DNA of 40,732 bases from a virus (lineage: Duplodnaviria; Heunggongvirae; Uroviricota; Caudoviricetes): the IMG/VR virus record IMGVR_UViG_2859827302_000005, positions 1-40,732 of that record. One strand, 5' to 3'. The notes under the pieces were generated by a model. It saw only the letters and a list, made by a program, of their open reading frames with translations, searched no databases and was not told the origin of the DNA. How positions within the stretch are numbered: position 1 is the first letter of the stretch; each line of letters begins with the position of its first letter. Shown here piece by piece: positions 8,601 through 31,886 of the stretch. Position numbers and translations under genes: made by a program.

Positions 8601-9104
8601 CACCACCGAGGCCAGATACTGCGAGGTGGTTTTGCCCTTAATGGTGATGTCTTTTTCCGTCACCCAGCCACCGTTACGTTGTATCTGAACCAGCAGGCGG
8701 ACTTCCGACGGATTCCTGTCACCCTTTGAGGTGGTTTCCACCAGTGCCTGCACACCGAAGGTAAAGCGCAGACGGTCGATGTTTGCAGACGTGATGGTCC
8801 GGGTGATCGGCGTGTCGTATTTCACTTCCGTACCCAGCACCGTCTCGGAACCGGAGGATTCAAATCCCTCCGGCGGTGTCTGCTCCTGCTCACCTGCCCG
8901 GAACACCACCGTAACACCGGAGATGTTGGTATTCCCCTCACTGTCCAGCACCGGTGTACTGTTCAGCAGCACGCTTTTTAATCCATCCACCGGACCTTCA
9001 ATCGGCCCTTCGCTGATGGCATCGATCACACTCAGTAATTGCGTGGATTTCAGGTTGTCCTTCGCTTCGCGCGGGGTATGCCCCTTACTGCTTCCTTTAC
9101 CCAT
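5625..9104 (-). CDS. J: tail tip / host specificity protein J
   Basis: 1159 aa; N-terminal about 800 aa near-identical to lambda J as I recall it. The C-terminal receptor-binding region (ends ...[14 protein letters not shown]) differs from my recollection of lambda J, so the receptor may differ. Confidence 0.9.
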
Positions 9105-9114
9105 TCCTCACACT

Positions 9115-9146
9115 CCATAAACAACAAAGCCGCCCAAAAGGCGGCT
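9115..9146 (-). terminator. putative intrinsic terminator between lipoprotein moron and J
   Basis: Stem agccgcc/ggcggct with a short loop, followed on the minus strand by TTGTTGTTTATGG. Confidence 0.45.
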
Positions 9147-9170
9147 CATGAGTTACGGCAGGATTAACTA

Positions 9171-9509
9171 TTATTTACATGCATTAACACTATCAGCAAA
9201 AATTTTTGGCGTTAATGCTGGTACACGTTCATAAAGAGTAAAACTACTGCCATTTCCTGCTTTTTTGATATCAAGCACAATATCATATCCCCCCATAGCC
9301 TGTGGAACTAAAAGGCTTACCCCATTCTCAATAGGAAGGGATGTTATAGGTGTTCCATTACCAGCCCATTGTCTGGATATGCAGCCTGACAATTCATCAA
9401 TATTTTTTAATGAATTACCTTCCATTACAGGTTTTCCGGATTTTACGTAATCCAAAGATTTACATCCTGTTAAGGCAATAATCGTGCAGAATAAAATCGT
9501 TTTGTTCAT
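9171..9509 (-). CDS. putative lipoprotein (moron between I and J)
   Basis: 112 aa from the ATG at 9509; the ORF-track start at 9521 is a TTG. Signal peptide with lipobox LTGC (MNKTILFCTIIALTGC). AT-rich; lambda has no gene at this position. Confidence 0.6.
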   Translation of the reverse strand: MNKTILFCTIIALTGCKSLDYVKSGKPVMEGNSLKNIDELSGCISRQWAGNGTPITSLPIENGVSLLVPQAMGGYDIVLDIKKAGNGSSFTLYERVPALTPKIFADSVNACK

Positions 9510-9581
9510 ATAGCTAACCAATAGAATAATTATCAGTGTTCGATATAAATATTAAATCAGTTAGAACATGAGTAAATAATA

Positions 9582-10230
9582 TTACCGCCCAATTACCACA
9601 ACCTGACCACCATCCCCTTCATCTGCCGTGCTGATCTCCTGAGATGCCACACGTGACCCCACGCGCATTTCACCGTACAGAACAGGCAGGACATTGCCCT
9701 GGGCAACCATGTTATCCAGTGAGGAGAAATAGGTGTTCTGTTTGCTGTTTGCCGTTATCCGTTGTCTGTGTACGTGGAGTTTTGGGTTTAGGGGCCAGCA
9801 TCTGTGCGACACCACCAAGCGTCATCGCTGCCCCCATAGAAAAGAGAATGTTACTGAAAGCGATACTGATTCCTGGCATCCAGATTGCCGTAGCAATCAG
9901 CGCCGCACCCAGCACTGCCTGAAAAACACCACCACTTTTGGCACCCGCCAGACGCGGTACGATGTGGATCACGGCACCATTTGCCAGCGGCTCATTAAGA
10001 CGGGCAGATAATTCGTTTTCGCCTGCATCACGCCCGGCAATGCGCACCTGATACCAGCCCTCATTCAGTTTCTGGCGAAACGCCGGGAGCTGTGTGGCCA
10101 GCGCCCGGATGGCTTCGGCCCCCGTTTTCACACGAAGGTCGATGCGGCGACCAAATCGTTGTAAATCCCCGTAAAGGCAGATGCGTGCCATGCCTGGTGA
10201 CGCCAGAGGGAGTGTGTGCGTCGCTGCCAT
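9582..10230 (-). pseudogene. I: tail assembly protein I, frameshifted by a 7-bp tandem duplication
   Basis: N-terminal 172 aa match lambda I and then stop prematurely. The lambda-like C-terminus (NTYFSSLDNMVAQGNVLPVLYGEMRVGSRV...VVVIGR) continues in another frame to 9582. Plus-strand TGTTTGC occurs twice in tandem at 9739..9752. Confidence 0.8.
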
Positions 10231-10871
10231 TTGTCGGTGTACCTCTCTCGTTTGCTCAGTTGTTCAGGAATATGGTGCAGCAGCTCGCCGTCACCACAGT
10301 AAATGGCGGCATGATTCGGCACCGATGAACCAAAACAGCACAGCAGCACATCGCCCGGCTGCGCCGCTGACAACGGCACCTGATACAGCCCTGTGGCCTC
10401 CAGATTATCCAGATAGAGATTCTGACCGTGACGCCACCAGTCATCCCCGCGATGAAAATCCGGCATCTCAATCCCCGCCAGATGATAAGCATCCCGGAAC
10501 AGCGTGTAACAGTCCGTCACCCCGTGCTCAAAGCGCCGCCCGGTGAGATGCGGCACACAGCGGAACTTGTGAATCGCCCCCCGGCAGACCAGCCACCACG
10601 GCAAATCACTCTGCACCTGCAGCCGCCGGTCAGCCTCACTCAGCCAGGGCAGACCACCGGGATGACTGTGGACCAGTGCCACAATCTCACCCTGCATCTC
10701 TGCCTGCAGCCAGTCCTCCGGAGCCATCCGGAAATAATCCTCCGGCTCACCGGAAATATTCACGCAGGGAAAATATCTTTCCCCCTCCGGCGCTCTCACC
10801 ACGAAGCCGCACGACTCCGCTGGCGCACATCGCCGGGCGTGCGCCAGAATCGCTGATTCTGTCTCTGTCAT
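10128..10871 (-). CDS. K: tail assembly protein K (NlpC/P60 and JAB/MPN-like)
   Basis: Strong match to lambda K (MTETESAILAHARRCAPAESCGFVV...). Start taken at the internal ATG at 10871. Confidence 0.85.
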   Translation of the reverse strand: MTETESAILAHARRCAPAESCGFVVRAPEGERYFPCVNISGEPEDYFRMAPEDWLQAEMQGEIVALVHSHPGGLPWLSEADRRLQVQSDLPWWLVCRGAIHKFRCVPHLTGRRFEHGVTDCYTLFRDAYHLAGIEMPDFHRGDDWWRHGQNLYLDNLEATGLYQVPLSAAQPGDVLLCCFGSSVPNHAAIYCGDGELLHHIPEQLSKRERYTDKWQRRTHSLWRHQAWHASAFTGIYNDLVAASTFV

Positions 10872-10875
10872 GGGA

Positions 10876-11574
10876 TTACTGCGAAAGTTTGTTAATGGAA
10901 AGGAAGCCGCCAAAGTTGCCGACGTTATTGCGAAACTTACAGCCGCTCAGGCATTTGCTGCATTTATCCTTCGTGATATCGGACGTCGGCTGGTCATATT
11001 CATCCGCGACTGCCGGACCGTGATAACCGCACTCATCACCGCGATAGGTCCAGGTGCAGGTGTTGGCCAGCATGATACGTCCCGGAAAAACAGCGCCATC
11101 CGTTTCCGTCGGCGTGGACAGTACAAAGGAGGCACTCACCGCGCTCAGTTCGCTGCACTGCTCGATGCGCCAGCGGCTGATCACCTCCTGCTCCGGATCG
11201 GCGTCACTGTTTCCGTTGACGAAGTTCACCGCATCCAGAAAACGGGCGTAAACCTTACGCCGGACCACCGTTCCGCCGACCAGACTCTGCATATCTTCCA
11301 CCATACCGGTGACCATACCGTACAGGTTAGAAACCGTCAGCGTGGGGCGCGTACTGGTGCCTTTGCCATTCAGTTCAAAACCACTCCCCTGAATGGGATA
11401 CGGCTGATACTGTCGCCCCTGCCAGGTGACCGGCTCACCTTTTTCGTTCTGCTCATTACAGAAAAAATAACGTTCTCCACCGACCTCTGTCAGATCGATT
11501 TCCCAGAGCACCACGCTGGCCGACTGCTCCGCACGGGTGCATTCATTCAGTGTTTCCTGCCGGATATCCTGCAT
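10876..11574 (-). CDS. L: minor tail protein L
   Basis: 232 aa, lambda L-like (MQDIRQETLNECTRAEQSASVVLWEIDL...). Confidence 0.9.
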   Translation of the reverse strand: MQDIRQETLNECTRAEQSASVVLWEIDLTEVGGERYFFCNEQNEKGEPVTWQGRQYQPYPIQGSGFELNGKGTSTRPTLTVSNLYGMVTGMVEDMQSLVGGTVVRRKVYARFLDAVNFVNGNSDADPEQEVISRWRIEQCSELSAVSASFVLSTPTETDGAVFPGRIMLANTCTWTYRGDECGYHGPAVADEYDQPTSDITKDKCSKCLSGCKFRNNVGNFGGFLSINKLSQ

Positions 11575-11903
11575 CAGTTCACCACCTGTTCAAACTCTGC
11601 GCTGAACTCAACACGCAGCATACTGACCCGCGACGACCATTTTGCGCAGGTCACCTTTATCTGCCGCCACTCATAAGGCGGCGTCCACAGAAAGGATTTC
11701 CAGCCCCCGTGCTCAGCCAGAAACGACTCAAGCGCCGTGGCCTCCCAACGGGGAACAGAAAGCGTCACGCTGTACGTTTTCAGGTCGGCATTCAGCCCGG
11801 CAGGCGCTCGCTGGGAATAGCCATCACCAAAGCGCACTTTCCTGACGGAAGGGGCTGAAGCCACATCCATACCGGGTTTCACTTTCCAGCGGAAGGTCTT
11901 CAT
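11574..11903 (-). CDS. M: minor tail protein M
   Basis: 109 aa, lambda M-like. Confidence 0.9.
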   Translation of the reverse strand: MKTFRWKVKPGMDVASAPSVRKVRFGDGYSQRAPAGLNADLKTYSVTLSVPRWEATALESFLAEHGGWKSFLWTPPYEWRQIKVTCAKWSSRVSMLRVEFSAEFEQVVN

Positions 11904-14473
11904 CGTCCACCTCCGGAGAACAGACCACCATCGCGCATCTGTGCCTGAATTTCATCACGGGCACCCTTGCGGGCCATGTCATACACTGCCTTCAGCATCT
12001 GTGGACCTGGCAGACCATTCGTACCGTCGTTCTGAATCACCACGTTGTTGTTCTGCTCAAATCTGATACCCTCTGAACGCCGCATTTGCGCCGGACTTCC
12101 GGTGCCACCGACATAACCGCCGGTGGCATAGCCGCGCATCAGCCGGTAAAGATTTCCCACGCCAATCCGGCTGGTCGCCTCCTTCGTGAAGACAAACTCC
12201 CCGCGATGAACAATCCCCGCAGGTTCATATTTACCCCCCGTCCCCGTAAATCCCCCGGTCGCGAAATGGAAGTTCGCCGCCGCAGCCTGAATGGCTGTAC
12301 CGCCTGACGCGGATGCGCCGCCACCAACAGCCCCGCCAATGGCGCTGCCGATACTCCCGACTATCCCCACCATCGCCTGCTTCAGAAAAATCTCTGTCAG
12401 CATGGACAGCACAGAACGGGTGAAACCACGCCAGTTCTGTTCGCTGCCGGTCAGCATCGCTGCCATATTCTGTACAATACCGTCAAAGGTCTGCGTGGCC
12501 GCGTTTTTAACCTGCGAAAAACTGTCCGTCGCACTTTCCGCCCACTCGCCCCAGCCGGACTTCATCCCGGCCATCCAGCTTCCACGAAGCTGCTCCTCCG
12601 CAGACCAGGTGTTCTTCAGTGCAGATGTGGCCTTCGCCAGCGCAGCCGGATTATCACCGTACACCTCACGAAGGCGCTGCTCTTCCGACTCCCGCTGCGC
12701 CTGACGGTCGGTGAGTCCGCGTGCTTTTGCGCTGATTGCCGCCTGCTTCGCGCTCTGCTGCTGTTCAAACCGCGCCGCCTGCTGTGCCAGCTCATTCAGC
12801 CGTTTCTGGTGTTCAATCTTGTCGCCCAGCTCAGCCAGCTGGCGTTTGTACTCCAGCGTTTCTTTCTCATGGGCCAGCAGGGATTTTTCCTGCTCAGATA
12901 ACTGCCGTTTCGTGGCGGCCTCTTTCAGGACCACATACTGATTTTCCGCTTCCCATAAATCCCGGCGCTGCTGGCTGATTTTCTCATTCACACCGCTGTG
13001 TTTTTCCAGCGTCCTGAGCTCGGTTTCAAGCGCCAGCATGGCTGCATGCGCCCGGTCTTCCTGGCGCTCACCGGCAGACACCTTCACACCTGACGGCTTT
13101 TTCAGCGTCGATTCATAATCCTTTTTTGCCGACGCCATCAGCGTGTTGTAATCCGCCTGCAGGATTTTTCCGTCTTTCAGGGCCTTATTCAGCTCTTTCT
13201 GACGGGCGGTATATTTATCCAGCGGCGTCTGCAGGCGCTCATACGCCTTCTGCGCCTCTCCGGTATACTTCAGCTGTGACGCCTCACGCTCAGCCCGGTC
13301 CCTTGCCGCCAGTTCACCGGCTTTTTCCATATCCGACTGCAGCGTGGCCGCTGCCAGACCCAGACGGGCATTTTCCCGGTCATCCCATGCCCCCTGAAGG
13401 TTCGCACGAAAAGAGGAGGTCTTTCCCCGGCGCTGGCTCCGGCTCTGGTACCACTGCCATTTTTTATCCGCCTCATCAAATGCCTTCTGCGCACTGGCGA
13501 GCATATCCGCTGAGGATTCAGGACGACCGATATCCAGAATGGCATCCCACATCGATTTGAATGCCTTCCCTGTTTTATCCGCCCAGGTCTCCAGTGTTCC
13601 CATGTTTTCTTTCAGGCGACGGGTCTGCTCATCAAAGCCTTTCGTGGCGATATCGTTCGCCGCCTGCAATGCCCCGGCCTCGTCTCCGGAACGCTGCAGC
13701 TGTGCAACATACGCAATCTGCTCTGCCGTCACGTTACGGAACTGGCGCGCCATCGCCATCAGTCCCGACGTCGGGTCAGTGGTCAGCTTCCCGAAGGCTT
13801 CAGCGACTTTATCCACCTCCACACCGGATGCAGACGCAAAACGCGCGACACTCTGGTTGATGGCATCAAACTGTTCACCACCACGCACACCGGCATTCAC
13901 CAGGGCTGCCAGTGACTCTCTCGCCTGGTTAAACGTCAGCCCTGCTGCCTGCCCGGCTCTTGAGAGAGTCAGCATACGATCGGCAGTCAGTCCGGACTGA
14001 TTACCGGAAAGAACCAGGGTTTTATTAAACGCTGAAAGCGTGGAATCTCCCTGGTACCAGGCGTACACCAGCGCACCTGTCGCCACCGCCAGCGAGGTGA
14101 CTCCGACCATCGGCAGGGTGATCGCACCGGCGAGCCCCCTGAACATGGGGATCATCCCGCCGAAGGAGTCCTTCACCTGACCGCCCTGTTGCAGCAGGAT
14201 CAGCCAGGGATTCTGACCACCGGCAAGCTGCGTGGCGATATCCGTAAACTGTGCGGGCAGGGTTCGCATGGCCGCTTTATACTGCCCGACGGAAATCCCG
14301 GCTTTTTGTGCAGCCAGCGCCTGGCGGCTCAGGCCCTGTTCAACAGCACTGGCGGTTTTTCTGGCGTCGGTATCCATACCTGAAAAATGACGCCTTACCC
14401 GGCTCATCTGCTCATCGAAACGGACAGCATCCAGACTCAGGTCAATAACAAGATCACCAACCGGCTGGGACAT
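11900..14473 (-). CDS. H: tail tape measure protein H
   Basis: 857 aa, lambda H-like, with coiled-coil middle and Gly-rich C-terminus. Confidence 0.9.
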   Translation of the reverse strand: MSQPVGDLVIDLSLDAVRFDEQMSRVRRHFSGMDTDARKTASAVEQGLSRQALAAQKAGISVGQYKAAMRTLPAQFTDIATQLAGGQNPWLILLQQGGQVKDSFGGMIPMFRGLAGAITLPMVGVTSLAVATGALVYAWYQGDSTLSAFNKTLVLSGNQSGLTADRMLTLSRAGQAAGLTFNQARESLAALVNAGVRGGEQFDAINQSVARFASASGVEVDKVAEAFGKLTTDPTSGLMAMARQFRNVTAEQIAYVAQLQRSGDEAGALQAANDIATKGFDEQTRRLKENMGTLETWADKTGKAFKSMWDAILDIGRPESSADMLASAQKAFDEADKKWQWYQSRSQRRGKTSSFRANLQGAWDDRENARLGLAAATLQSDMEKAGELAARDRAEREASQLKYTGEAQKAYERLQTPLDKYTARQKELNKALKDGKILQADYNTLMASAKKDYESTLKKPSGVKVSAGERQEDRAHAAMLALETELRTLEKHSGVNEKISQQRRDLWEAENQYVVLKEAATKRQLSEQEKSLLAHEKETLEYKRQLAELGDKIEHQKRLNELAQQAARFEQQQSAKQAAISAKARGLTDRQAQRESEEQRLREVYGDNPAALAKATSALKNTWSAEEQLRGSWMAGMKSGWGEWAESATDSFSQVKNAATQTFDGIVQNMAAMLTGSEQNWRGFTRSVLSMLTEIFLKQAMVGIVGSIGSAIGGAVGGGASASGGTAIQAAAANFHFATGGFTGTGGKYEPAGIVHRGEFVFTKEATSRIGVGNLYRLMRGYATGGYVGGTGSPAQMRRSEGIRFEQNNNVVIQNDGTNGLPGPQMLKAVYDMARKGARDEIQAQMRDGGLFSGGGR

Positions 14474-14867
14474 ATCTCACACCTCCCGGAATCCCCGCTG
14501 AAGCCATCATTAATGCGGCATCATCCACCATGACATCCGCCACATCCGCAGACGATAAAATATCGCGCCCTCCGTCCCCACCGAACCGGACGCCTCCGGC
14601 AAGTCCTGCCGCTTTCTGCATCAGCATTTTGTCCTCATCCGGCCTCTCCACCTGCTCTTCCTCATGCCGGGGGACAAGCAGACTGAAATCAGAGGGATGC
14701 ATATCCGGATCGCAAAAAAACAGGCTGAGTACAGCGTACGTCAGCCCGGAAAAATGCATATCCAGCTGGGTATCCTGAAAATAATGCGTGCGGTAAAAAC
14801 GGTGCCAGTCGGCATATTCGGTGGATGTCATCCCGGCAAGCATGGCGCGCCAGTCGGGTCTCCCCAT
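14454..14867 (-). CDS. T: tail assembly protein T (T portion of the G-T fusion)
   Basis: The -1 frame downstream of the G slippery site encodes ...GKVFDGELNFALRLAREMGRPDWRAMLAG... Confidence 0.8.
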   Translation of the reverse strand: MGRPDWRAMLAGMTSTEYADWHRFYRTHYFQDTQLDMHFSGLTYAVLSLFFCDPDMHPSDFSLLVPRHEEEQVERPDEDKMLMQKAAGLAGGVRFGGDGGRDILSSADVADVMVDDAALMMASAGIPGGVRYVPAGW

Positions 14868-14893
14868 CTCACGCGCCAGTCTGAGGGCAAAGT

Positions 14894-15325
14894 TCAGCTC
14901 GCCGTCGAAGACTTTCCCGCAGAAAAATCATCATCAGTCAGCGTGTTATTTTTCGCCACTTCAGTAATATCAGTATCCGGACGAACAGCTTCGATCATCC
15001 CGGACAGGCACAACACCACGTCTTCCGCCCGGGCAATGGCATCGGCAGGCCAGGTGGTGAGCACTTCCTGCTCTATCTTCATCACGGCCTCATTCATTGA
15101 CGGTGACTGCGTTTTCTGTGGATGGTTATGCCACAGGGACATCGCCACCAGAAACGCGCCGGTTCTGACGAGATCTTCCACGCTTACCTGCAGGTTGCCG
15201 CAGGATTCTGCCTGTTCTGCACGCCGTTTCAGGAGGGCAAGATGCTCGATACGCTGCAGCGCAGACAATTCGGAAAGCGTGACAGACACACCGTTATATT
15301 CAAATTGTTCTGTTTTCAGAAACAT
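14894..15325 (-). CDS. G: tail assembly chaperone G
   Basis: 143 aa, lambda G-like (MFLKTEQFEYNGVSVTLSELSALQRIEHLAL...). Confidence 0.9.
   Translation of the reverse strand: MFLKTEQFEYNGVSVTLSELSALQRIEHLALLKRRAEQAESCGNLQVSVEDLVRTGAFLVAMSLWHNHPQKTQSPSMNEAVMKIEQEVLTTWPADAIARAEDVVLCLSGMIEAVRPDTDITEVAKNNTLTDDDFSAGKSSTAS
14912..14918 (-). other. programmed -1 ribosomal frameshift slippery heptamer G GGA AAG (G to G-T)
   Basis: Plus-strand ctttccc is gggaaag on the minus strand, in the X XXY YYZ frame near the G C-terminus (…DDDFSAGKSSTAS). Confidence 0.7.
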
Positions 15326-15338
15326 GTATTACCTCCGT

Positions 15339-15944
15339 TTACCCTGCAGCGCCCGCTTCAGTAACGGTGACTTCAGCCACTGCGGCGAACTGACCATTTC
15401 CGCTCACCACAGGGATCTGCACCTTACCTGTCGCCACGCCGTTTACCGTAATTGTCATATCTTTCACACTAATGGTGGCTTTCGACGGATCGGCGGAAAC
15501 CGCTCTGAACGTCTTGTCGGTTGCACTTTCCGGCTCAAAAGAAACCGTCAGGGTGGTTGTTTTCCCTTTTGCCACCGTACCGGATGTCGGCGTCATCTTA
15601 ATCGCACTGACCGGCGTAATTTTGCTGCGTTCTTCCGCTACAGAAGGTTTACCCACGTTAGTGACTTTCACCGTGCGGGTGATCACTTCTTTCGCCGTCA
15701 CGGCCTTACCGATACTGCTGACCCAGCCACGAAACACATCCACCGTGCCATTCGGAAAACGGATTTTATAGGCCCGGACATCGCCGCTTTCAAACCAGCC
15801 TATAAGCCCTTTCTGGCCTTCCTCTCCCGGTTTCCAGGCCAGCGTAAAACTGGTATCACCTGCAGATTTCTGCCCCTGCCCGGTCGCGGTCCAGTCCGCG
15901 TCTTCATCATCCAGGTAGTTATCATCGTAGGATTCTGCCGTCAT
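15339..15944 (-). CDS. V: major tail tube protein V, N-terminally shortened relative to lambda V
   Basis: 201 aa, aligning with lambda V from about residue 51 (TAESYDD...). The ATG lies 7 nt after the U stop, with an in-frame TGA 11 codons upstream. Confidence 0.8.
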
Positions 15945-15951
15945 CTCGCCC

Positions 15952-16347
15952 TCACATCTCGTATGTAATGGAATAAGTCAGATCTGCAGAACTCCATAAC
16001 GCCATATCGTCATCACGACGATACTCATAGCCCTGCGTAACCATCGTGGTAATCAGTCCTGCCAGTGCCGGGATCGCGGTCATCGCCGGGTAAATCCGGC
16101 TTTCCATCCACTGTTCAAGCTCTGAATCCGGTACCTGTGCCGGTAAAAACACCTCAATATGCAGCGTGGCCCGCCAGGTATCTGCATCCAGCTCTTCACC
16201 GGTATACTCTGCATCCGTCAGATAAACCGCGATCGCAGGAAAATCCTCTTCGTCAAAAACAACGGGGCGACCATCAAACAGCGTCGCCCCGTGTTCATGC
16301 TGCTCGAGTGCATCCAGCACTGCGGCACGAATGTCAGTGTGTTTCAT
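15952..16347 (-). CDS. U: tail terminator protein U
   Basis: 131 aa, lambda U-like, ending ...LTYSITYEM. Confidence 0.9.
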
Positions 16348-16877
16348 CGTTTTATTGCAATCCTCAGTTGTTGTTTCAGCGCGTATGCCAGTTCTTTAGG
16401 CAGGCGTTCACGCCGGATACGGTCAACATTCTCATCAAATGCCTGTTTCAGTGGGGCCGCCATCGGGATTTTCACCACATCAATGGGGTAACGGTTTTTC
16501 CCGGCCACACGCTGCATGACATGCCAGCGACCATTTTTTAATCGCTGAATAAATGCCCGCTGATACCGATGCTGACCGGCTTTAAGTATGCTGTTCGGGC
16601 GACGCCCCAGCATCCTGATCCCCAGCTTAATCACAGGGAGATCACCGCGGTTAACGATAATTCTGGCATTCGGATTTCTGACCGTCGCCCGTTTCAGTCT
16701 GGACCGTTCCTTAACCAGTTTCCGGCGAACCTTTGTCTCCCGGGCAACCTGTGATGAAGACTGATTAATCGCCGTTGTGGCCACGCGGTTAATGGCCATT
16801 GCTGAAGCCGCCGGAATGGCGTTTTTACGAACCCGGCTCAGATTGTCAATCGCCTGATCAAGCCCTTTTATCGCCAT
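16344..16877 (-). CDS. Z: tail completion protein Z
   Basis: 177 aa, lambda Z-like (MAIKGLDQAIDNLSRV...). Confidence 0.9.
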   Translation of the reverse strand: MAIKGLDQAIDNLSRVRKNAIPAASAMAINRVATTAINQSSSQVARETKVRRKLVKERSRLKRATVRNPNARIIVNRGDLPVIKLGIRMLGRRPNSILKAGQHRYQRAFIQRLKNGRWHVMQRVAGKNRYPIDVVKIPMAAPLKQAFDENVDRIRRERLPKELAYALKQQLRIAIKR

Positions 16878-16892
16878 AATTTCACCCTGCGT

Positions 16893-17246
16893 TTATCGTC
16901 GCCGGTTAACTGCGGGTAGTTGACCACGGTTGAGCCAGAGATAACAGCTGCCCCCGTCATCCGGAGAAATACGATCCACCCAGAACATCTCGCCGTTAAT
17001 GGTCAGCGTGTCACCACGCCGCACGGCACGCACCGTATCCGTCCGCACAAATAATGACGGGCTGCTTCCTTCAATACGGACCCCGCCACCGGCAAAACCC
17101 AGCGACTCCGGATCGTCAAAAACCCCCTGAACTTCGCTTCCACGCTGTGCTCCCGAGGTGAACTGCGCACAGAGCCCCATCACTTCAACAATCGTGCTGT
17201 CCACCCCGGCAAGGGCAGCATCAAAGGCATTCTGAAAATCACGCAT
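16893..17246 (-). CDS. FII: head-tail joining protein FII
   Basis: 117 aa, lambda FII-like (…GDTLTINGEMFWVDRISPDDGGSCYLWL…). Confidence 0.85.
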   Translation of the reverse strand: MRDFQNAFDAALAGVDSTIVEVMGLCAQFTSGAQRGSEVQGVFDDPESLGFAGGGVRIEGSSPSLFVRTDTVRAVRRGDTLTINGEMFWVDRISPDDGGSCYLWLNRGQLPAVNRRR

Positions 17247-17622
17247 GCTCAGCCGTTCCGTGCTGTATCATGGCTGTCGCCAGTGGTGATGGCACCATAA
17301 CACGCATGCCCCGGTACGTCAGTTCAACGGGACGGCCTGTCTCCGGGCAATACCCCATCACATGCAGGCATTTCCGCACACGGACCGCTTTAACATCATC
17401 CGTAGCATCCGTGTTGTTCAACTGCTCACCATCGTCTGTGTGATTTTGATCAGCCCCGCTCTCATCAGAGTGCATAATGCCCTCCGGGGAAACAGCAAAC
17501 TCCTCTTCCCACTCAGACACACGTTGAGCAATATCCGCAGCACTCCCCGACATATCCGCCTCGCGCCCCAGCAGGCCAGCCAGTTGACGAAGACGATTCA
17601 GATTTTCTTCTTTTGTTGCCAT
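17239..17622 (-). CDS. FI-position protein (putative DNA packaging protein; positional analog of lambda FI)
   Basis: 127 aa acidic protein between E and FII. Sequence does not match my recollection of lambda FI, so the call is by position only. Confidence 0.5.
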   Translation of the reverse strand: MATKEENLNRLRQLAGLLGREADMSGSAADIAQRVSEWEEEFAVSPEGIMHSDESGADQNHTDDGEQLNNTDATDDVKAVRVRKCLHVMGYCPETGRPVELTYRGMRVMVPSPLATAMIQHGTAEHA

Positions 17623-17672
17623 CTCAGCCTCCTGTGAAAAAAGACACGGGGCATTTCGCCCCCGCTCACGGA

Positions 17673-18701
17673 TTATTTCACCTGTACCACCACAAACTCA
17701 TCCGGATCCGGCAGCACCATCAGCGGTGCGGACTGCGTCATGGTGAATTCACGGGCCGGATCGCCCACAGTCAGCCAGTGTTTCGGATAACGGGAAGAGG
17801 CCACCACACCTTCGGACAACGCCTGCGCATCCTGAATGGCACCATAGCAACGAATGCCCTCTGCTGCCGTATTCCCCAGGACCAGTGTGCCCTCCGGCAG
17901 ATAACGTTTTTCGGTACCGTCCTCTGCCACATAAGACGTTTTCGCCACCACAATGGCCAGATCGCCGTAATACCCCTTGAAGGACACCACCGCCCCCAGG
18001 TCTTTCACTGCCGTTTCGAGTTGTGAATTTGAGCCGCGACGGGTATCCAGTTTTTCGCGGAACAGCTTAAAGCCATTCAGCAGACGCCAGACCGTACCGT
18101 CCATAATGGCGATATTCACAAGGCCGCTGGCCTGATCGCAGTAGAGGTCAATATCATGCGTCGGATCAAACGTATCACGGTCCTGCTCAGACCATTTTTT
18201 ACCGTCAGCCAGCTCAATGTTATTTCCTTCAGAGCGCCCGAAATCCACCTCGACAGTATCAAACTGATCCCCTTCCATGGTGTATTTGCCATACAGCACG
18301 GCATTCACCGCCTGCATTTCTTCCACCTGGACAATGGCGTGCTCTTCCTGTTTGAGGTTATCGGTAATGATACGCAGACGACGGTAGGCCGGGTCGTTCA
18401 GCTGAGCCGGATCTTCACCAGGAAGGCGCTCAACCGCCTGCTGGTAATTAAATTCGTGTTTGGGCTTGACGTAGCCCGGACGTAACACGCGGGTTTCACC
18501 ACCGCGATGGCGAAGCACTTTTCCTTCAACGATCGGGGAGACATAGGCCGCCACCGGCGTTTTTCCGGTAATTTTGTCCAGCATCACCTCTTCGGTGTGG
18601 AAATTCACCGTACGGCGGAAAAACAGCTCCAGAAACAGCGCACGGAATTTAACTTTTTGTTCGGTATAACCGAGTAACTGGCGGGTCGTAAACAATCCCA
18701 T
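17673..18701 (-). CDS. E: major capsid protein E
   Basis: 342 aa, lambda E-like (…YVSPIVEGKVLRHRGGETRVLRPGYVKPKHE…). Confidence 0.9.
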   Translation of the reverse strand: MGLFTTRQLLGYTEQKVKFRALFLELFFRRTVNFHTEEVMLDKITGKTPVAAYVSPIVEGKVLRHRGGETRVLRPGYVKPKHEFNYQQAVERLPGEDPAQLNDPAYRRLRIITDNLKQEEHAIVQVEEMQAVNAVLYGKYTMEGDQFDTVEVDFGRSEGNNIELADGKKWSEQDRDTFDPTHDIDLYCDQASGLVNIAIMDGTVWRLLNGFKLFREKLDTRRGSNSQLETAVKDLGAVVSFKGYYGDLAIVVAKTSYVAEDGTEKRYLPEGTLVLGNTAAEGIRCYGAIQDAQALSEGVVASSRYPKHWLTVGDPAREFTMTQSAPLMVLPDPDEFVVVQVK

Positions 18702-18758
18702 AAATCAGTTCCTTTCATTAAGAAATCAGTCAGGCCAACGCGGTGGCCTGATAACGTG

Positions 18759-19106
18759 TTACGGCAGCGCCGCGTGACTCAGGGCGGTGCCGGCAAAGGC
18801 ATTTGCCTTTTTGTGTTCATCCACACTGTCAGGCCAGCGGATTGCCTCCGTCGCAAAGGTCCCCGACTTGTAATACGTCAGCACCGCCTCTGTGCCTTCA
18901 AGCGGCAGTACCAGTATGCCAACCGCACTACCGGCTTTCTGTCCGTCCCAGACCACCAGTTTCCCGGTGGCCCCATCCAGCATCAGGGGTGTCAGTGCCG
19001 GTGTTGCCGAGGAAATCCCGCTGCTGCCTGTGGCGGTGTGAGCCGGATCATTACCGGCAAAAATACGTACTTCCGCACGCTGTTCAGTGATGGTTTTCTT
19101 CACCAT
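18759..19106 (-). CDS. D: head decoration protein D
   Basis: 115 aa, lambda D-like (…DPAHTATGSSGISSATPALTPLMLD…). Confidence 0.9.
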   Translation of the reverse strand: MVKKTITEQRAEVRIFAGNDPAHTATGSSGISSATPALTPLMLDGATGKLVVWDGQKAGSAVGILVLPLEGTEAVLTYYKSGTFATEAIRWPDSVDEHKKANAFAGTALSHAALP

Positions 19107-19176
19107 ATTGTTAAAACCTCGTATTGATGTTCAGCACTGACTTCATGGCATGGCCATGAGCATTTTCACGTCCGCA

Positions 19177-20649
19177 TCACCGTCTTCTGACGCCTGTGAC
19201 ACGCTCCCCCTGGACCGCAGCCGGTGAATGGTTCGCCATGAAATGTTCAAACAGGGCGGTTGTGGATGCAGAGACCGGTTCTGCCTTACCTGATCCCGCA
19301 GCCAGCACAGCCCGGGCGCTCTCCACGGTCATTCCCGGGCAGGCAGCCAGCTGTTCAGCCTGCGCCTCAGCCCCTTTTGCCTCATCCAGTGCCATGATCT
19401 GATCACGGAGTGATGGTCCGGCATTCGCCTGCGGTGAAGCAGCCAGGATCGGGCGGGCTTTTTCCACCGTCATCTCCGGCATCGCCGCCAGCGTTGCTGC
19501 CAGTTGTTCACGACCGTTCGCTTCTTCACACGCCATAATGCGATCGGCTTCACTCTGCGCGGATGCCACCGGCTGCTGCGGTGCCGCCGCGGCCAGAATC
19601 GCCCGGGCCTGTTCAACGCTCATGCCCTGTTGCCCTGCCAGCATCGTGGCAAGCTGTTCACGTCCTTTCGCTTCCTGGCATGTCAGGATCCCCATCACTC
19701 GCTGGTTCTCCTGCACGGCGGCTTCCGTTGCAGTTAATTGCGGCATAGTGCCTCCTCTGACATTACTGTTCAGCGCCGTGGCCATCACACTGATGGCATC
19801 CGACGCATTGATTAATTCATCCGCCAGCCCGGCCTCAATGCCGGACTGACCTTCAAAAACGGCGGCCTCTGTTCCCGTGACCGCATCCACAGACAACCCG
19901 GTATACATCGCCACTTTTTCGGCAAACATCCGGTGCGCCGCATCAATCCGCTGCTGCATATCCTGGCGAACCTCTGCCGGCAACGCTTCAAACTGATTGC
20001 CATCCACCTTGTGCGCCCCGGCATAAATCAGCGTGATATCCACACCGGCCTGCGCCAGATGACCGGCATAGCTGACATGGCTCATCATCACGCCAATGGA
20101 GCCGATACGGGATGTCTGGGTAACCAGCCGTCGGGAGCAGGCCGACGCCAGCAGCATGGCTGCAGAACAGGCCGTGTCATTGCACAGTGCCCAGACCGGC
20201 TTCTGCTGACGGAGGCGGTAAATCATGTCAGCGCAGTCAAACGCGCCGGCGGCCTGCCCGCCCGGACTGTCAATGTCCAGCAGTATGCCCCGCACCTGGC
20301 TATCTGCCATTGCCTGCTGAAGACAGGCGACAATGCCGTCATAGCCAGTCATTCCGGAAAATGGCCGCATCCCCCCCAGCCGGTGCACCAGCGTGCCGGT
20401 CACCGGCAGTACCGCAATACCGTTCACCACCCGGTAAACACGGGCCGGTCGTTTACCTCCGGCCATGTACTCGTCCGTTTCAGCCAGCATTCCGGGAGCA
20501 TCAAGCTGTACCTGCTGTTGTGGTACCGAAAGACTTGCTGCGCCCATCTCGCGCCCGAGCGCGCAAAAGAAAACCCGCGCATAGGCGGGCTCCAGAAGCA
20601 GCGGTTCATTGAATGCTGCGGCAATAATGTGTGAAAGATTACGTCTCAC
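19177..20649 (-). CDS. C: head maturation protease C (S49 family) with nested scaffold Nu3
   Basis: 490 aa. N-terminal ClpP/S49-like protease region; C-terminal scaffold region with three tandem ~45-50 aa repeats. Confidence 0.85.
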   Translation of the reverse strand: MRRNLSHIIAAAFNEPLLLEPAYARVFFCALGREMGAASLSVPQQQVQLDAPGMLAETDEYMAGGKRPARVYRVVNGIAVLPVTGTLVHRLGGMRPFSGMTGYDGIVACLQQAMADSQVRGILLDIDSPGGQAAGAFDCADMIYRLRQQKPVWALCNDTACSAAMLLASACSRRLVTQTSRIGSIGVMMSHVSYAGHLAQAGVDITLIYAGAHKVDGNQFEALPAEVRQDMQQRIDAAHRMFAEKVAMYTGLSVDAVTGTEAAVFEGQSGIEAGLADELINASDAISVMATALNSNVRGGTMPQLTATEAAVQENQRVMGILTCQEAKGREQLATMLAGQQGMSVEQARAILAAAAPQQPVASAQSEADRIMACEEANGREQLAATLAAMPEMTVEKARPILAASPQANAGPSLRDQIMALDEAKGAEAQAEQLAACPGMTVESARAVLAAGSGKAEPVSASTTALFEHFMANHSPAAVQGERVTGVRRR

Positions 20650-22231
20650 GTGGTGTTGTCTCCTCTTCCTGCCTGCGACTCTCCGCTATCTGCTGCTGAT
20701 ACGCCTGCGCTATCCACACCGGACGTGAGAGTCCGGCTTTTTCCCGCTCTGCAGATTCCCTGACCTGCTGGCGGAAAATGTCCTGATAATCCTCGCCCAT
20801 CAGCGCCAGCTCTTTCTCATACGTGCTCAGTCCGGCCTCAATGCGCATCACTGATTCCTGAACCTCCTTGAGCCCGTCAATGGCCATTCTTCCGGCTCCA
20901 ATCCACTCAGCCCGTGACCAGGCTGATCGCGCCTGATAAAAATCAAAACGTGCCCGTGGCGGACGAATAATCCCCCGAAGAAGTGCCTCTTCCAGCCAGC
21001 AGGAAAACATCTGCGTGGCCAGCCGGGACGCAATAAATTTTCGCCGCCCCATAAAATAGCGCCACGACTCATTGGCGGATGCGCGGGCACTTGAATAACT
21101 GACCTTCGAGTAATCACGGGACAACTGTTCGTAGGAAACGCCAAGACCGGCGGCGATATACCGCAGCAGCGCCTGTTCAAGCGCCGAAAATCCATTGTCT
21201 GAATCCTGCGCGGTCTGAAGTTTCAGATCATCACCGGGGAAAAGGTGCGGAATTTTGACACCGCCCAGCGTCACGCTATTCGTGTCATACCAGGTGGAGA
21301 ACTTATCCAGAATATTAATAAGCGGATTATCCTTCTGCCCCTGCGGCGCACCGGCGATATATTCAAAGGCCTTTTCGGTATCAAGGTCACTTTCAATCGT
21401 CGCTGCATACATCGCCTTCACTATGGCCGACTGAAGCTGTGTTGCCTGCAGGGAATCCAGCATCTTCAGCCGTTCCATAACGCTGTAAAACTGATTGGCT
21501 CCACGGGTCTGCCCGTCCTCCACCGGCTCGAAAATATGCAGCATGGCCGGACGCCCGGTGGGTAGTTCACGCGGGATCCGTTCCCATCGTCCACTCCCGG
21601 AGCGAGGAAAATCATCCTCACAGATATGGTACGCAACGGCACGGCCATATCGATCAACCTCCACACCAGCCCGCAGAAAACGGTTCCCGATACCGTGTCC
21701 TGGCGTGTCCACCCGTTTCGGACTCACGGCTTTAAAACGCGTACGAAACAGTTGCGTACTCTCCGTATCCCAGACCGGCTGCACAAAGATTTCGCCGTTA
21801 AACGCATGAACGCCCACACCTTCACGGATAAATTCCGTAAACGTGCGTTTCCCTTCCACGTCGATCTCACCAAACATCCCTTCTGCGTATTCTGACCAGG
21901 CCGCCTCCACCTCATCGACAAAACTTTTTGCCGCGGTCTCCCGCATCCCCAGCCAGCGCCAGTTCGGACGGTAGCTAATCAGAAACATATGCCCGACAAT
22001 GTGATCCTTATGCAGGGCCACCGCATTGGCCGCTATTCCGTTATTGCGCACCAGATCATCTGCACGGGCATTCCCCAGACGCAACGCGGGCAGCAGGGCC
22101 GCATCGGCACTCTGCGAGGGTGGCAACCACTCTGCCATTTGCCCGCCAAATCCTGCACCGCCACCGGTGTAGCTGAGGCTCTCCCGAAGCGGAACGCCGT
22201 TCACATCAATCAGGACAGGCGTTCGTTTCAT
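20639..22231 (-). CDS. B: portal protein B
   Basis: 530 aa, lambda B-like. Confidence 0.9.
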   Translation of the reverse strand: MKRTPVLIDVNGVPLRESLSYTGGGAGFGGQMAEWLPPSQSADAALLPALRLGNARADDLVRNNGIAANAVALHKDHIVGHMFLISYRPNWRWLGMRETAAKSFVDEVEAAWSEYAEGMFGEIDVEGKRTFTEFIREGVGVHAFNGEIFVQPVWDTESTQLFRTRFKAVSPKRVDTPGHGIGNRFLRAGVEVDRYGRAVAYHICEDDFPRSGSGRWERIPRELPTGRPAMLHIFEPVEDGQTRGANQFYSVMERLKMLDSLQATQLQSAIVKAMYAATIESDLDTEKAFEYIAGAPQGQKDNPLINILDKFSTWYDTNSVTLGGVKIPHLFPGDDLKLQTAQDSDNGFSALEQALLRYIAAGLGVSYEQLSRDYSKVSYSSARASANESWRYFMGRRKFIASRLATQMFSCWLEEALLRGIIRPPRARFDFYQARSAWSRAEWIGAGRMAIDGLKEVQESVMRIEAGLSTYEKELALMGEDYQDIFRQQVRESAEREKAGLSRPVWIAQAYQQQIAESRRQEEETTPRET

Positions 22232-22434
22232 AACCTCACTCCCAGCGGACGACGGCGACGGCGGGTTGTCCCCAGTACCGACTCCGCATCATTGATCGCC
22301 CGGTTAAGCTCATCCAGAGAAGCTGCCGTATATTCAATTCTGCGACCATCTTTCTGGACAGACACCACCCGTTTACCGGTTAATAAATCAAGGCGCGCCT
22401 GACGCAGCGCCTGCAGTTCAGCGACTGTAACCAT
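22228..22434 (-). CDS. W: head-tail joining protein W
   Basis: 68 aa, lambda W-like (…LTGKRVVSVQKDGRRIEYTAASL…). Confidence 0.85.
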   Translation of the reverse strand: MVTVAELQALRQARLDLLTGKRVVSVQKDGRRIEYTAASLDELNRAINDAESVLGTTRRRRRPLGVRL

Positions 22435-24346
22435 TCACTCCTCCGGACAGCTTCGCTGCCAGTTCTTTAAGGGTTGGCCGGGTCGTCTCTTCTTCCCGGG
22501 ATTTTGCCAGTACAGCCAGATCAAGCTGCCAGCGTTGCACGGACACACGTAATGCCGCGTAGGCATACACCAGGCAGTCCAGCGCTTCGTTACGCCGCTT
22601 TTTGTTATCCCACAGCAGACGCATCTTTCCTTTTTCCCACTTCTCCACAAGCTCTTCCGCCACCAGTTGCTGCGCCTCTGTCTGCGAAAAAATCTCCGGA
22701 TCATCAGGAAAACGGATGGCATACGACGTGGCTTCATCCACAGGCGTGGGATCGGCTTTCATACGGGCATAGAGAATTTCTTTTGCGGTGTCCGTCCCCA
22801 CTTCACACAGATACACGCCCCGCTGATTGCGGGTTTTTGGCATGGTGATCACCGGCTTGCCATAGACAGATGCGCCTTTTACCGGCAGCACCCGGAAAAC
22901 ACCGTGTTTTTTTGACCTCTGATAAACGATTTCGCCATCAATCCCCCCGATGTCCCAGCAGACACGGGAAATAGTCATTTCGGTTCCGTCTGCATGGCGG
23001 TATTTTTTGTTGATCGCCGCATCCACACGTAATAGCGTCTCTTCCTCATCGGGACGCCCCATAATGATGATTTTATCCACCAGAAAGGCTTCCTCTCCCG
23101 GAGCCCATCCCCAGACATACATCTCAAAACGGTTTCGCTGCGAGTCAATGCCCGCCGTCAGATAAACCACCCGGGCAGGCACCGCCGTCGTGTAACGCAC
23201 AACCTTATCCATCAGTACCTGGTGATCGAGTTTTTCGCCCACGGCCTCTTCCCAGGTCTCGCCCAGCGTGGTGTTCACAAAGGTTTTCAGGCCGTTGGGA
23301 TCTTTCAGTGCATCCAGCCAGTCATAGACAATCTGTACCCAGGTGGTGAACGGACTGTACGCCGTCCAGATATGGAAAGTGATGGAGCGCGGCGGTGGAA
23401 TTTCATCACCCCGGGCGCTGAAAAACATCAGGCCGTCACGGGTCCACATGCCCGTGTTTTCACAGATCCACCGCCCGTTACTCTGGTCAAGCTCAGACTG
23501 ATGGATCACACAGCCATGATGCTCACAAAGGTAGAAAACACTTTCTGGCTTATTCTTCTCCCACTTAAGACCGAAAGGCGAGGCATCATCGCCAAATTTC
23601 AGATACTGCTCCTCCCCACAGTGCGGACAGGGCACATAAAAACGCATGAAGTGTGCCGACTCGTTAGCGGCTTTTTCGATCTGGCAGGAGCCTTTGATTT
23701 TAGGCGTCGAGCCGCGAATGGATTTTGGCCATACAGAGCCCTCAATACGTTTATCCCCCAGCAGGGTTGGCGAACCCTCTTTTTCAACATCCGGTTCGAA
23801 CGAGGAAAGCTCGTCATAACAGACCACATCCACGGATTTTTCACGGTAGTTTTTTGCTGCCGCACCACCCAGACACCAGAACCCCACACCGGAGGAAAAA
23901 CGCTTCAGGGTGAGCGTATTATCGCGGTGTTTTCTTCCGAACCATGGAGCCAGCTCCAGCAATGCAGGAACATCCCTTATCGTTGGCTCAACATGAGATT
24001 TCATAAAATCTTCAGCAGCTGAGTCCGTGGGCTGAAAAAGAAGGCTGTTGCGTGATTTATGCTCAATAAAATAAGCCTCCACTCCCAGCAACATCTTTGT
24101 ATAACCAACACGGGCAGATTTAATCAGGTTAACCGTACGAATCAGATCGTTGCCCATACAGTTCATGATGCCAACCTGAAACGGCAGTGTTTCCCACCGC
24201 CCCGGGGTATAAGACGACTCTTTAGGAAGGTAATAATGTTTATTGGCCCACTGAACTGTCGTCAGTGGAACAGGAATAATGAGAGATAAAAGCCCTGTAG
24301 CTATCGCACCGGCTGCATTAGCTGCCTTCTGCGCGTCTGAAATCAT
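22418..24346 (-). CDS. A: terminase large subunit A
   Basis: Lambda A-like throughout (…[25 protein letters not shown]…). Start taken at the internal ATG at 24346, overlapping the Nu1 3' end as in lambda. Confidence 0.9.
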
Positions 24347-25043: not shown

Positions 25044-25055
25044 AGGTCGCCGCCC
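25044..25055 (-). other. cosN cohesive-end sequence (GGGCGGCGACCT on minus strand)
   Basis: Minus strand reads ggggcggcgacctcgcggtttttcactatttatgaaaatttt, matching the lambda left end as I recall it. cosB would extend toward Nu1 (about 24867..25043). Confidence 0.65.
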
Positions 25056-27507: not shown

Positions 27508-27618
27508 ACCCCGTCTCCCGTTATCCGGAAGCTGACAACAATAAAAAAAGCCACCAGTTAAGTACTGATGGCTCTGATAACTCATGCAGGCCTCTCAGAC
27601 GACCCACTGGATTTGCCC

Positions 27619-28524
27619 CTATATTTCCAGACATCTGTTATCACTTAACCCATTACAAGCCCGCTGCCGCAGATATTCCCGTGGCGAGCGATAACCCAGC
27701 GCACTATGCGGATGCCATTCGTTATAATGCTCGAACGCCTCTGCAAGGTTCTTTGCTGCCGTTAACCCGTCTGGTTTGGGCATGATACTGATGTAGTCAC
27801 GCTTTATCGTTTGCACGAAGCTCTCTGCTATTCCGTTACTCTCCGGACTCCGCACCGCCGTGTTCTTCGGTTCAAGTCCCAACATCCGGGCGAACTGGCG
27901 TGTTTCATTAGCCCGGTAGCATGAACCATTATCCGTCAGCCACTCCACTGGAGACGACGGAAGATCGTTGCCGAAGCGGCGTTCCACCGCTCCCAGCATG
28001 ACGTCCTGTACTGTTTCACTGTTGAAGCCGCCGGTAGTCACCGCCCAGTGCAGTGCCTCACGATCACAGCAGTCCAGCGCGAACGTGACACGCAGTCTCT
28101 CTCCGTTATCACAGCAGAACTCGAACCCGTCAGAGCACCATCGCTGATTGCTTTCTTTCACGGCCACTCTGCCTGTATGTGCCCGTTTCGATGGTGGTAC
28201 AGCAGGTTTTCGCTCAAGCAACAGCGCATTCTGGCGCATGATCCGGTAAACACGTTTGGCATTGATCGCAGGCATACCATCAAGTTCTGCCTGTCTGCGA
28301 AGCAGCGCCCATACCCGACGATAACCATACGTGGGCAGCTCTCCGATAACATGGTGTATACGGAGAAGCACATCCGTATCATCAGTGTGACGACTGCGGC
28401 GGCCATCCATCCAGTCATCGGTTCGTCTGAGAATGACGTGCAACTGCGCACGCGACACCCGGAGACAACGGCTGACTAAGCTTACTCCCCATCCCCGGGC
28501 AATAAGGGCGCGTGCGCTATCCAC
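27619..28524 (-). CDS. insD: IS2 transposase OrfB (InsD)
   Basis: 301-aa ORF with DDE integrase-like sequence; in IS2 it is expressed as a frameshift fusion with InsC. Confidence 0.9.
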
Positions 28525-28847
28525 TTTTTTGCCCGTCCATATTCAACGGCTTCTTTGAGGAGTTCATTTTCCATCGTTTTCTTGCCGAGCAGGCGCTGGA
28601 GTTCTTTAATCTGCTTCATGGCGGCAGCAAGTTCAGAGGCAGGAACAACCTGTTCTCCGGCGGCCACAGCAGTAAGACTTCCTTCCTGGTATTGCTTACG
28701 CCAGAGAAATAACTGGCTGGCTGCTACACCATGTTGCCGGGCAACGAGGGAGACCGTCATCCCCGGTTCAAAGCTCTGCTGAACAATTGCGATCTTTTCC
28801 TGTGTGGTACGCCGTCTGCGTTTCTCCGGCCCTAAGACATCAATCAT
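28482..28847 (-). CDS. insC: IS2 OrfA (InsC)
   Basis: 121 aa, [41 protein letters not shown]…, helix-turn-helix. Confidence 0.9.
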
Positions 28848-28993
28848 CTGTACTCCAATGACTAGTCTAAAAACTAGTATTAAGACTATCACTTATTTAA
28901 GTGATACTGGTTGTCTGGAGATTCAGGGGGCCAGTCTACCCACTGACACTACCGGTGAGTTTAACGATACCTTCCATTTGACTGGCTCACTTT

Positions 28994-30850: not shown

Positions 30851-30930
30851 GGTTCTTTCCACCATCTGAAAAATGGGTGATGCTGCCAACTTACTGATTT
30901 AGTGTATGATGGTGTTTTTGAGGTGCTCCA

Positions 30931-31206
30931 GTGGCTTCTGTTTCTATCAGCTGTCCCTCCTGTTCAGCTACTGACGGGGTGGTGCGTAACGGCAAAAGCA
31001 CTGCCGGACATCAGCGCTATCTCTGCTCTCACTGCCGTAAAACATGGCAACTGCAGTTCACTTACACCGCTTCTCAACCCGGTACGCACCAGAAAATTAT
31101 TGATATGGCCATGAATGGCGTTGGATGCCGGGCAACTGCACGCATTATGGGCGTTAGCCTCAACACGATTTTACGTCACTTAAAAAACTCAGGCCGCAGT
31201 CGGTAA
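30931..31206 (+). CDS. insA: IS1 InsA
   Basis: 91 aa, [43 protein letters not shown]…. Confidence 0.9.
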
Positions 31207-31250
31207 CCTCGCGCATACAGCCGGGCAGTGACGTCATCGTCTGCGCGGAA

Positions 31251-31628
31251 ATGGACGAACAGTGGGGATACGTCGGGGCTAAATCGCGCCAGCGCTGGCT
31301 GTTTTACGCGTATGACAGGCTCCGGAAGACGGTTGTTGCGCACGTATTCGGTGAACGCACTATGGCGACGCTGGGGCGTCTTATGAGCTTGCTGTCACCC
31401 TTTGACGTGGTGATATGGATGACGGATGGCTGGCCACTGTATGAATCCCGCCTGAAGGGAAAGCTGCACGTAATCAGCAAGCGATATACGCAGCGAATTG
31501 AGCGGCATAACCTGAATCTGAGGCAGCACCTGGCACGGCTGGGACGGAAGTCGCTGTCGTTCTCAAAATCGGTGGAGCTGCATGACAAAGTCATCGGGCA
31601 TTATCTGAACATAAAACACTATCAATAA
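31251..31628 (+). CDS. insB: IS1 InsB frame (C-terminal part of the InsAB' transposase)
   Basis: …[51 protein letters not shown]…; expressed by -1 frameshift from insA. Confidence 0.8.
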
Positions 31629-31886
31629 GTTGGAGTCATTACCTGAAAAATGATTCTTTAAAATACCTGACATGTAATACAGAAAAAAACAAAACCATAC
31701 CTTAAATAAAAACCTCATCATCAAGCAGATATGCATGGATAAACTACAAGACGAGATATAAACCACCATGCATTTAAATAAACAATAAACAACATCAGAA
31801 AAATAATTCTGCTCTATGGTTTACAATCAAAAATATCATTTATACTTTTCAGAACATCACCAGCAAGACATAAACAAGGAAACTAA

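Follow-up and report, generated by a model that had tools for sequence, protein, structure and literature searches.

A 147-bp deletion at the start of the tail tube gene V in a lambda-like, very probably defective prophage of Shigella dysenteriae

The 40,732-nt stretch of DNA analysed here (hereafter, the window) is very likely a lambda-like prophage from a Shigella dysenteriae chromosome that lost the start and codons 1–49 of its major tail protein gene V in a single 147-bp deletion, and that has since been inherited vertically as a tail-less, defective element. The ends of the deletion fall in two imperfect repeats, GGACGATATG, which ends in Met1, and GGGCGAGATG, which ends in Met50, with Met50 taking the place of Met1 behind the same GAGG ribosome-binding site. 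The resulting 201-aa protein, devoid of residues 1–49, would probably still be translated whenever the late genes are transcribed. It lacks the N-loop, beta1, the O-loop and beta2 and begins with the flexible E-loop of approximately 28 residues, and with the tube-forming beta-sandwich of the hexameric rings thus incomplete it is very probably unable to build a tube. Because the tail tube is very probably not formed, the prophage alone would yield no infectious particles. A V117M substitution in V, a frameshift in gene I and several insertion sequences (ISs) represent later decay in the lineage of the window. The locus fits the well-known decay of lambdoid prophages in IS-rich Shigella genomes and, in this respect, represents ordinary, already known biology.

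The truncated major tail (tube) protein gene V (15339..15944, minus strand) encodes 201 aa that correspond to residues 50–250 of the 250-aa V protein of this lineage. It is located between the intact tail terminator gene U (15952..16347, minus strand; 131 aa, with a PF06141 match over the full profile length) and the chaperone genes, namely the intact tail assembly chaperone gene G (14894–15325, minus strand; 143 aa) and gene T (14454–14867, minus strand; 137 aa), and upstream of the tape-measure gene H (11900–14473, minus strand; 857 aa). Together with gene Z (16344–16877, minus strand; 177 aa), these genes are arranged in the order Z-U-V-G-T-H, which, according to the ORF list and a Pfam scan, is the order found in lambda. 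The closest complete genome is that of Escherichia coli GZ04-0086, whose prophage adjoins ompW and shows 99.4% identity to the window over positions 1–15951 and 98.0% over positions 15942–25087. The U proteins of the window and this E. coli relative share 99.2% identity over 131/131 aa, G and T are 100% identical, H is 99.5% identical and all of them are full length.

The V protein of the window begins with MTAESYDD, and its ATG (15944–15942) follows the TGA stop codon of U (15954–15952) after a gap of 7 nt, exactly as an earlier note on this DNA had read it. On the minus strand, the U stop codon overlaps a GAGG Shine-Dalgarno sequence, which is followed by the spacer (15945..15954; read directly from the sequence). 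Upstream of the ATG, the V frame contains a TGA codon and then 11 sense codons with no ATG, GTG or TTG among them. An upstream extension of the ORF or an alternative V start is ruled out by this TGA and the 11 startless codons, as the same note had argued, and by the end of U only 7 nt before the ATG.

A DNA alignment of the window with phage 204576, PhiR12_2_star and lambda revealed a clean 147-bp gap at the start of the window V gene, and the same 147 bp are missing relative to the prophage of E. coli GZ04-0086. Matches to phage records that extend over both U and V always consist of two pieces, with 145–147 extra bases between them. The missing bases encode residues 1–49 of the 250-aa V protein of close relatives (lambda V has 246 aa). 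The protein and DNA alignments with lambda V and the V genes of related prophages thus give exactly 49 missing residues, where the earlier note had estimated about 50; they also place the window Met1 opposite L50 of lambda V and Met50 of the 250-aa V, where that note had put MTAESYDD at about residue 51 of lambda V.

The junction itself can be located precisely. The two BLAST segments obtained against the GZ04-0086 locus (L007) overlap by exactly 10 window bases, 15942–15951. This overlap, in agreement with the DNA alignment, defines the deletion junction (15942..15951, minus strand), at which a single repeat copy, GGGCGAGATG, is retained. Full-length relatives contain TGA-GGACGATATG at the V start, comprising the spacer and Met1, and CC-GGGCGAGATG 147 bp downstream, at codons 48–50; the window junction reads TGA-GGGCGAGATG. 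The two sequences form imperfect 10-bp direct repeats with 8/10 identical positions, and the unambiguous part of the crossover is the leading GG that adjoins the U stop codon. The complete 37-nt junction sequence is ACATACGAGATGTGAGGGCGAGATGACGGCAGAATCC. The proposal that a deletion had fused the 3' end of U to about codon 50 of V is therefore supported by a clean 147-bp gap with its junction next to the U stop. The deletion call is a deterministic comparison with relatives rather than a statistical pattern, and chance is irrelevant to it. One detail of the proposal needs to be modified: a replacement of CTG by ATG is apparent relative to lambda only, and codon 50 is natively ATG in this lineage. 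A CTG-to-ATG mutation as the origin of the V start is ruled out, as Met50 (in the context GEMTAE) is native in full-length relatives.

The most likely mechanism, as judged from the sequences at the junction, is replication slippage or illegitimate recombination between the repeats; the support for slippage is limited to 2 nt of unambiguous microhomology (GG) and six other identical positions of the 10-mer. With ATG at the end of both repeats, Met50 now occupies the former position of Met1 at the same distance from GAGG. The spacing between the Shine-Dalgarno sequence and the ATG is accordingly that of the wild type, and the calculated energy of the SD/anti-SD duplex is −6.1 kcal/mol in the window versus −5.9 kcal/mol at the wild-type V start. 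Since a repeat-mediated deletion yields these preserved start signals mechanically, selection is not needed to explain them.

We also considered whether the short V could reflect an error in sequencing, assembly or start-codon calling, which is hardly credible. Nothing was found in favour of this reading; some related records, such as that of phage 204576 and those of PacBio-sequenced Shigella chromosomes, do contain many 1-nt indels. A clean 147-bp gap is unlike a homopolymer error, no alternative start is present upstream, and the reading is refuted by the identical 37-nt junction, which was recovered from assemblies that different projects had produced independently (L004, L005, L006, L129–L135, L137 and L138). 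As for the error-prone records themselves, the record of phage 204576 (L001; CP025907.1) shows 29 gap openings in 3.6 kb relative to the window, including one of 1 nt within V; many single-base indels and many split genes are likewise present in the PacBio-sequenced Shigella chromosomes L131, L132, L134 and L135. The single-base indels in these five records are probably sequencing errors rather than biology, and some apparent further lesions in other deletion carriers may likewise be PacBio indel errors.

What the deletion removed can be judged from the lambda gpV protein (246 aa; PDB 2K4Q, 2L04, 6P3E, 7T2E and 8IYK). The window V is 77% identical to lambda gpV over the aligned part, and the PF16461 and Big_2 domains and the Z-U-V-G-T-H gene order are common to both; a full-length relative of the window V matches the lambda gpV chains at E ~1e-122. 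Unlike gpV, the window protein lacks residues 1–49 and begins at the equivalent of L50, the first residue of the E-loop. Its match to PF16461 (lambda tail tube protein; Phage_TTP_12) is strong (E = 2.1e-50, 170.6 bits against a cut-off of 26.1) and spans profile positions 33–135 of 135 only. The C-terminal Ig-like Big_2 domain (PF02368) is complete (residues 112–192, E = 5.3e-18), with AlphaFold pLDDT values of approximately 81–96. The window protein is therefore a truncated member of the gpV family: its sequence, synteny and Ig domain are those of the family, but the complete tube domain is not present.

In lambda gpV, the N-domain (residues 3–156) is a beta-sandwich flanked by a helix; residues 1–14 form the N-loop, the O-loop (24–38) sits between beta1 and beta2, and the E-loop (50–78) comes next (PMC10721106; PMC8718954). 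Six beta-sandwiches make up the core of each ring, and the N-terminal, E- and C-terminal loops mediate the contacts from ring to ring (PMC10721106; PMC8718954). When mapped on these published structures, the deleted residues 1–49 comprise the N-loop, beta1, the O-loop and the strand or strands before the E-loop, including beta2, and the window V thus has no complete tube domain. The missing segment belongs to the tube-forming N-domain, as had been claimed before. The AlphaFold (AF2) model of a full-length relative (mean pLDDT 66) places beta1 at residues 16–20, beta2 at 36–42 and a disordered stretch at 44–77. In the model of the window protein, residues 1–28 are disordered and the remaining strands are drawn as a partial sandwich; AlphaFold redraws the strands of a truncated protein from the alignment and says nothing on folding or stability, and the models were used only to place secondary structure.

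Conservation leads to the same view of the lost segment. Of the 49 alignment columns for residues 1–49, 24 are invariant in a set of 28 diverse full-length V proteins, compared with 52/107 in the rest of the tube domain (residues 50–156) and 7/94 in the Ig domain. The deleted segment is thus a structurally integral piece of the tube domain, as conserved as its remainder. From structure and conservation, we infer that the 201-aa protein is very probably unable to form a tail tube.

Shortened V proteins are known in other contexts, and the short V of the window could in principle be a functional tube variant that tolerates the loss of residues 1–49. Laboratory mutants of lambda V shortened by linker or C-terminal (Ig-domain) deletions were reportedly described by Katsura in 1981, and the existence of shortened lambda V proteins that still work lends this reading some support. 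Our database search also identified natural V variants of 212–233 aa in E. coli and Shigella prophages (P0034, P0086, P0089, P0105, P0106, P0117, P0123, P0130 and P0047 were aligned). These variants resemble the window V in that their genes have also been shortened by deletion within the same prophage family. However, they carry in-frame internal deletions either at the tube/Ig boundary (approximately residues 133–190) or in the E-loop, and all of them retain residues 1–49. To judge from the aligned sequences, the tube/Ig boundary may be a recurrent deletion hotspot at which shortened variants still function. In the window V, by contrast, the Ig domain is intact and the tube-forming end is lost; the deletion is not confined to the C-terminal third or linker, and the N-domain is not whole. 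In lambda, removal of the C-terminal V domain lowers activity but tails are still formed (PMC8718954), whereas the N-domain is the tube itself. The natural 212–233-aa variants are similar to such tolerated C-terminal deletions of lambda. The conservation of residues 1–49 described above and the lack of this form among deposited phages (see below) also argue against a functional tube variant, which we regard as very unlikely.

The distribution of the junction distinguishes propagated phages from a host lineage. The U-V region is present in 1,943 of 5,426 complete E. coli genomes, at 4,465 places (median of 2 and up to 7 places per genome with the region), and the junction was found in none of the 5,426. 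It was likewise found in none of the GTDB species representatives or metagenome contigs searched. The earlier note had raised the possibility that functional phages share the same short V; the junction occurs in 0 of the 119 matching phage records. In IMG/VR, two contigs contain the junction and at least 120 contain the wild-type sequence.

The exact protein of the window, which carries the database annotation 'phage tail protein', is present on only three contigs. Compared with residues 50–250 of the V protein of E. coli GZ04-0086, it contains a single difference, V117M; codon 117 (15594–15596) specifies Met in the window and Val in all other deletion carriers and in the intact E. coli relative. 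This non-synonymous change arose later than the V deletion. The ancestral short V without V117M was found on at least 53 contigs (75 index blocks) and constitutes a UniRef100 cluster of 127 members named 'Major tail protein V' (A0A3P6MB95_SHIDY). The idea that the deletion is a very rare or private allele was therefore rejected, because the apparent rarity of the window protein is due to the extra V117M change in an exact-sequence look-up.

Of ten inspected contigs that encode the 201-aa protein, nine contain the exact junction, including six complete chromosomes of 4.6–4.8 Mb; one of the junction-bearing chromosomes is CP026832 of S. dysenteriae 14 ATCC 49346 (PMC10132075). L136 (GCA_031945685.1) was rejected as a deletion carrier, since the same 201-aa ORF is called there from a broken full-length V with no deletion. 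At this locus (9867–10606), which belongs to a different prophage, the N-terminal part of V survives as a 45-aa fragment whose end overlaps the Met50 ORF by 4 nt. Because L136 is counted, short-V counts at the ORF level mix two kinds of lesion and slightly overestimate the number of deletion carriers.

The commonness of the 201-aa V, which had been left as a question, is thus answered: the short allele has become fixed in a lineage of Shigella prophages, carried by a group of Shigella chromosomes, and is absent from propagated phages. The lesion is inherited in the host lineage, and this pattern fits an allele handed down within a set of Shigella genomes, mostly by vertical descent. The 3–4 kb around V are nearly invariant, even in E. 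coli prophages without the deletion, and flanking SNPs therefore cannot separate a single from a recurrent origin of the deletion. The 37-nt junction provides a handy lineage marker for this group of Shigella dysenteriae-type genomes. The case also illustrates that a deletion between short repeats can leave an ORF with its start signals in place, which gene-calling programs take for a normal protein, as in the UniRef100 cluster described above. The gene should be marked as a (pseudo)gene truncated at its N-terminus instead of being called 'phage tail protein', and prophage-prediction pipelines should score the prophage as defective.

The persistence of an intact ORF raises the question of whether a new role has evolved for the truncated V, for example, as a dominant-negative subunit that would poison the tail assembly of lambdoid phages induced in the same cell or superinfecting it, or as a ligand whose exposed E-loop would be bound by the SecB-like chaperone of HigBAC. 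The latter idea comes from the HigBAC toxin-antitoxin-chaperone defence system, which senses unfolded gpV via residues 48–78; HigC binds these residues, and folded gpV is a weaker trigger than its unfolded fragments (bioRxiv 10.1101/2024.02.24.581848). With its start at residue 50, the window V retains the HigC-bound residues S54, D61–D64 (the DDED patch) and W67, which is a resemblance only. The ORF is intact, its ribosome-binding site has wild-type strength and an identical protein is encoded by many genomes. However, the start signals are explained mechanically by the repeat-mediated deletion, and an exact-sequence look-up finds unmutated copies only, so that the identity is no evidence of constraint. 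In addition, the single change in the window lineage, V117M, is non-synonymous, the gene belongs to the late operon and is silent in the lysogen, and HigBAC-type genes were not noticed on inspection of the window ORFs. Interference of a truncated V with the tails of other phages or with defence sensors would be new if true; the present data give no support to it, and we consider such a role very unlikely.

Returning to the defective prophage as the preferred explanation, the window contains further inactivating changes. The head and tail genes other than V and I are full length relative to the E. coli relative, but the tail-tip assembly gene I is frameshifted by a 7-bp tandem duplication (9738..9751; plus-strand sequence CTGTTTG CTGTTTG) that is evident in the comparison with that relative. 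As a consequence, gene I is split into two ORFs (9712–10230 and 9582–9818, minus strand). Two morphogenesis genes therefore carry inactivating lesions: V, by deletion, and I, by frameshift. The duplication is present neither in the E. coli relative nor in any of the eight further loci that carry the deletion and include this site, namely L006 and seven others. Because none of these eight other carriers contains it, the duplication is younger than the V deletion and private to the window lineage.

ISs were also identified inside the prophage, four in 40.7 kb, a density that is typical of Shigella. The first IS2 copy (27608..28938; 1331 bp) is flanked by a 5-bp target duplication, CCCAC, contains InsC/InsD-type ORFs and coincides with a break in homology with L007. 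It is inserted between the SASA-family esterase and holin genes, inside the late transcription unit and upstream of the lysis and structural genes. An IS1 element (30876..31643; 768 bp) with InsA/InsB ORFs and a 9-bp target duplication, TGAAAAATG, likewise coincides with a homology break and is located 25 nt upstream of the esterase start codon, in the leader region of the late operon. The second IS2 copy (38755–40085), flanked by the target duplication ATCTT, is located beyond the hokD/rem region and is 99.8% identical to the first. The target-site duplications of both IS2 copies and of IS1 are intact. Finally, an ORF corresponding to the first reading frame (orfA) of an IS3-family element, which we take to be of the IS600 type, starts at 40430 and runs past the window end (40430–40732).

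The combination of small lesions and ISs is reminiscent of lambdoid prophages of E. coli and Shigella described as defective or 'grounded', such as the defective Stx prophage of S. dysenteriae type 1, in which a resident prophage decays through small deletions, frameshifts and IS insertions and is inherited vertically in a Shigella lineage (PMC6379469; PMC7819885). The window differs from these prophages in that its structural module is still almost complete.

Decay is even less advanced in several other carriers of the deletion. In L129 and L130, the genes A, W, B, C, D, E, FI, FII, Z, U, G, T, H, M, L, K, I and J were all called full length, and in some carriers no lesion other than the V deletion is visible within the 20 kb inspected. 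V may thus have been the first gene to be hit. The minimal decay in L129 and L130 also speaks against the defective-prophage explanation, as the element could still be mobilised with V supplied in trans. It would then be a helper-dependent mobile element, defective in V and otherwise competent, that is packaged using the full-length V of a co-resident or superinfecting lambdoid phage. The full-length state of all other structural genes in L129 and L130 is in line with this scenario, and so is the presence of the U-V region at a median of 2 and up to 7 places per genome, by which near-identical V genes are often co-resident. The mosaic replacement of head genes among carriers, described below, shows exchange with other lambdoid elements and would suit it as well. 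In the window, however, gene I is frameshifted and three ISs interrupt the late region. Furthermore, all chromosomes in which the allele was seen are of the Shigella type, and neither the phage records nor the complete E. coli genomes contained it, a distribution that fits vertical inheritance and not spread. We therefore judge helper-dependent mobility to be improbable, and favour a defective prophage inherited in its host lineage.

The carriers differ from one another mainly outside the region around V. Compared with window positions 16300–18500 (genes FII, FI and E), L005 and L006 are identical around V and contain patches that are up to approximately 17% different. The head-gene patches reach 44 differences in one 250-bp bin and 130/250 in one L005 bin. 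Their sequences point to recombination with other lambdoid elements, which may have occurred after or around the time of the deletion.

A 1-bp indel at the 3' end of gene C, which encodes an S49 peptidase-scaffold protein (approximately 19205–19215; 19211), was examined as a candidate lesion and rejected, because the sequence patch around it is divergent and other carriers have it as well. The C product has 490 aa in the window and 501 aa in the E. coli relative; the indel is shared with L005, and the 490-aa form was found in several Shigella carriers. The 490-aa form is therefore probably an allele rather than a lesion.

Mosaicism is also apparent in the lysis region (25087–27036), where homology to the E. 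coli GZ04-0086 prophage breaks: the Rz-like gene is 56% identical and the lysozyme gene 91% identical to their counterparts. Two genes of the relative that separate Nu1 from the lysis cassette there, annotated as 'beta family protein' and 'sce7726', are missing from the window. This break represents a mosaic module exchange. In addition, the prophage contains two tRNA genes on the minus strand (33171–33247 and 33255–33330), an Arg tRNA (anticodon TCG) and a CAT-anticodon tRNA; the latter was assigned to Met by ARAGORN and is annotated as tRNA-Ile in the homologous E. coli prophage.
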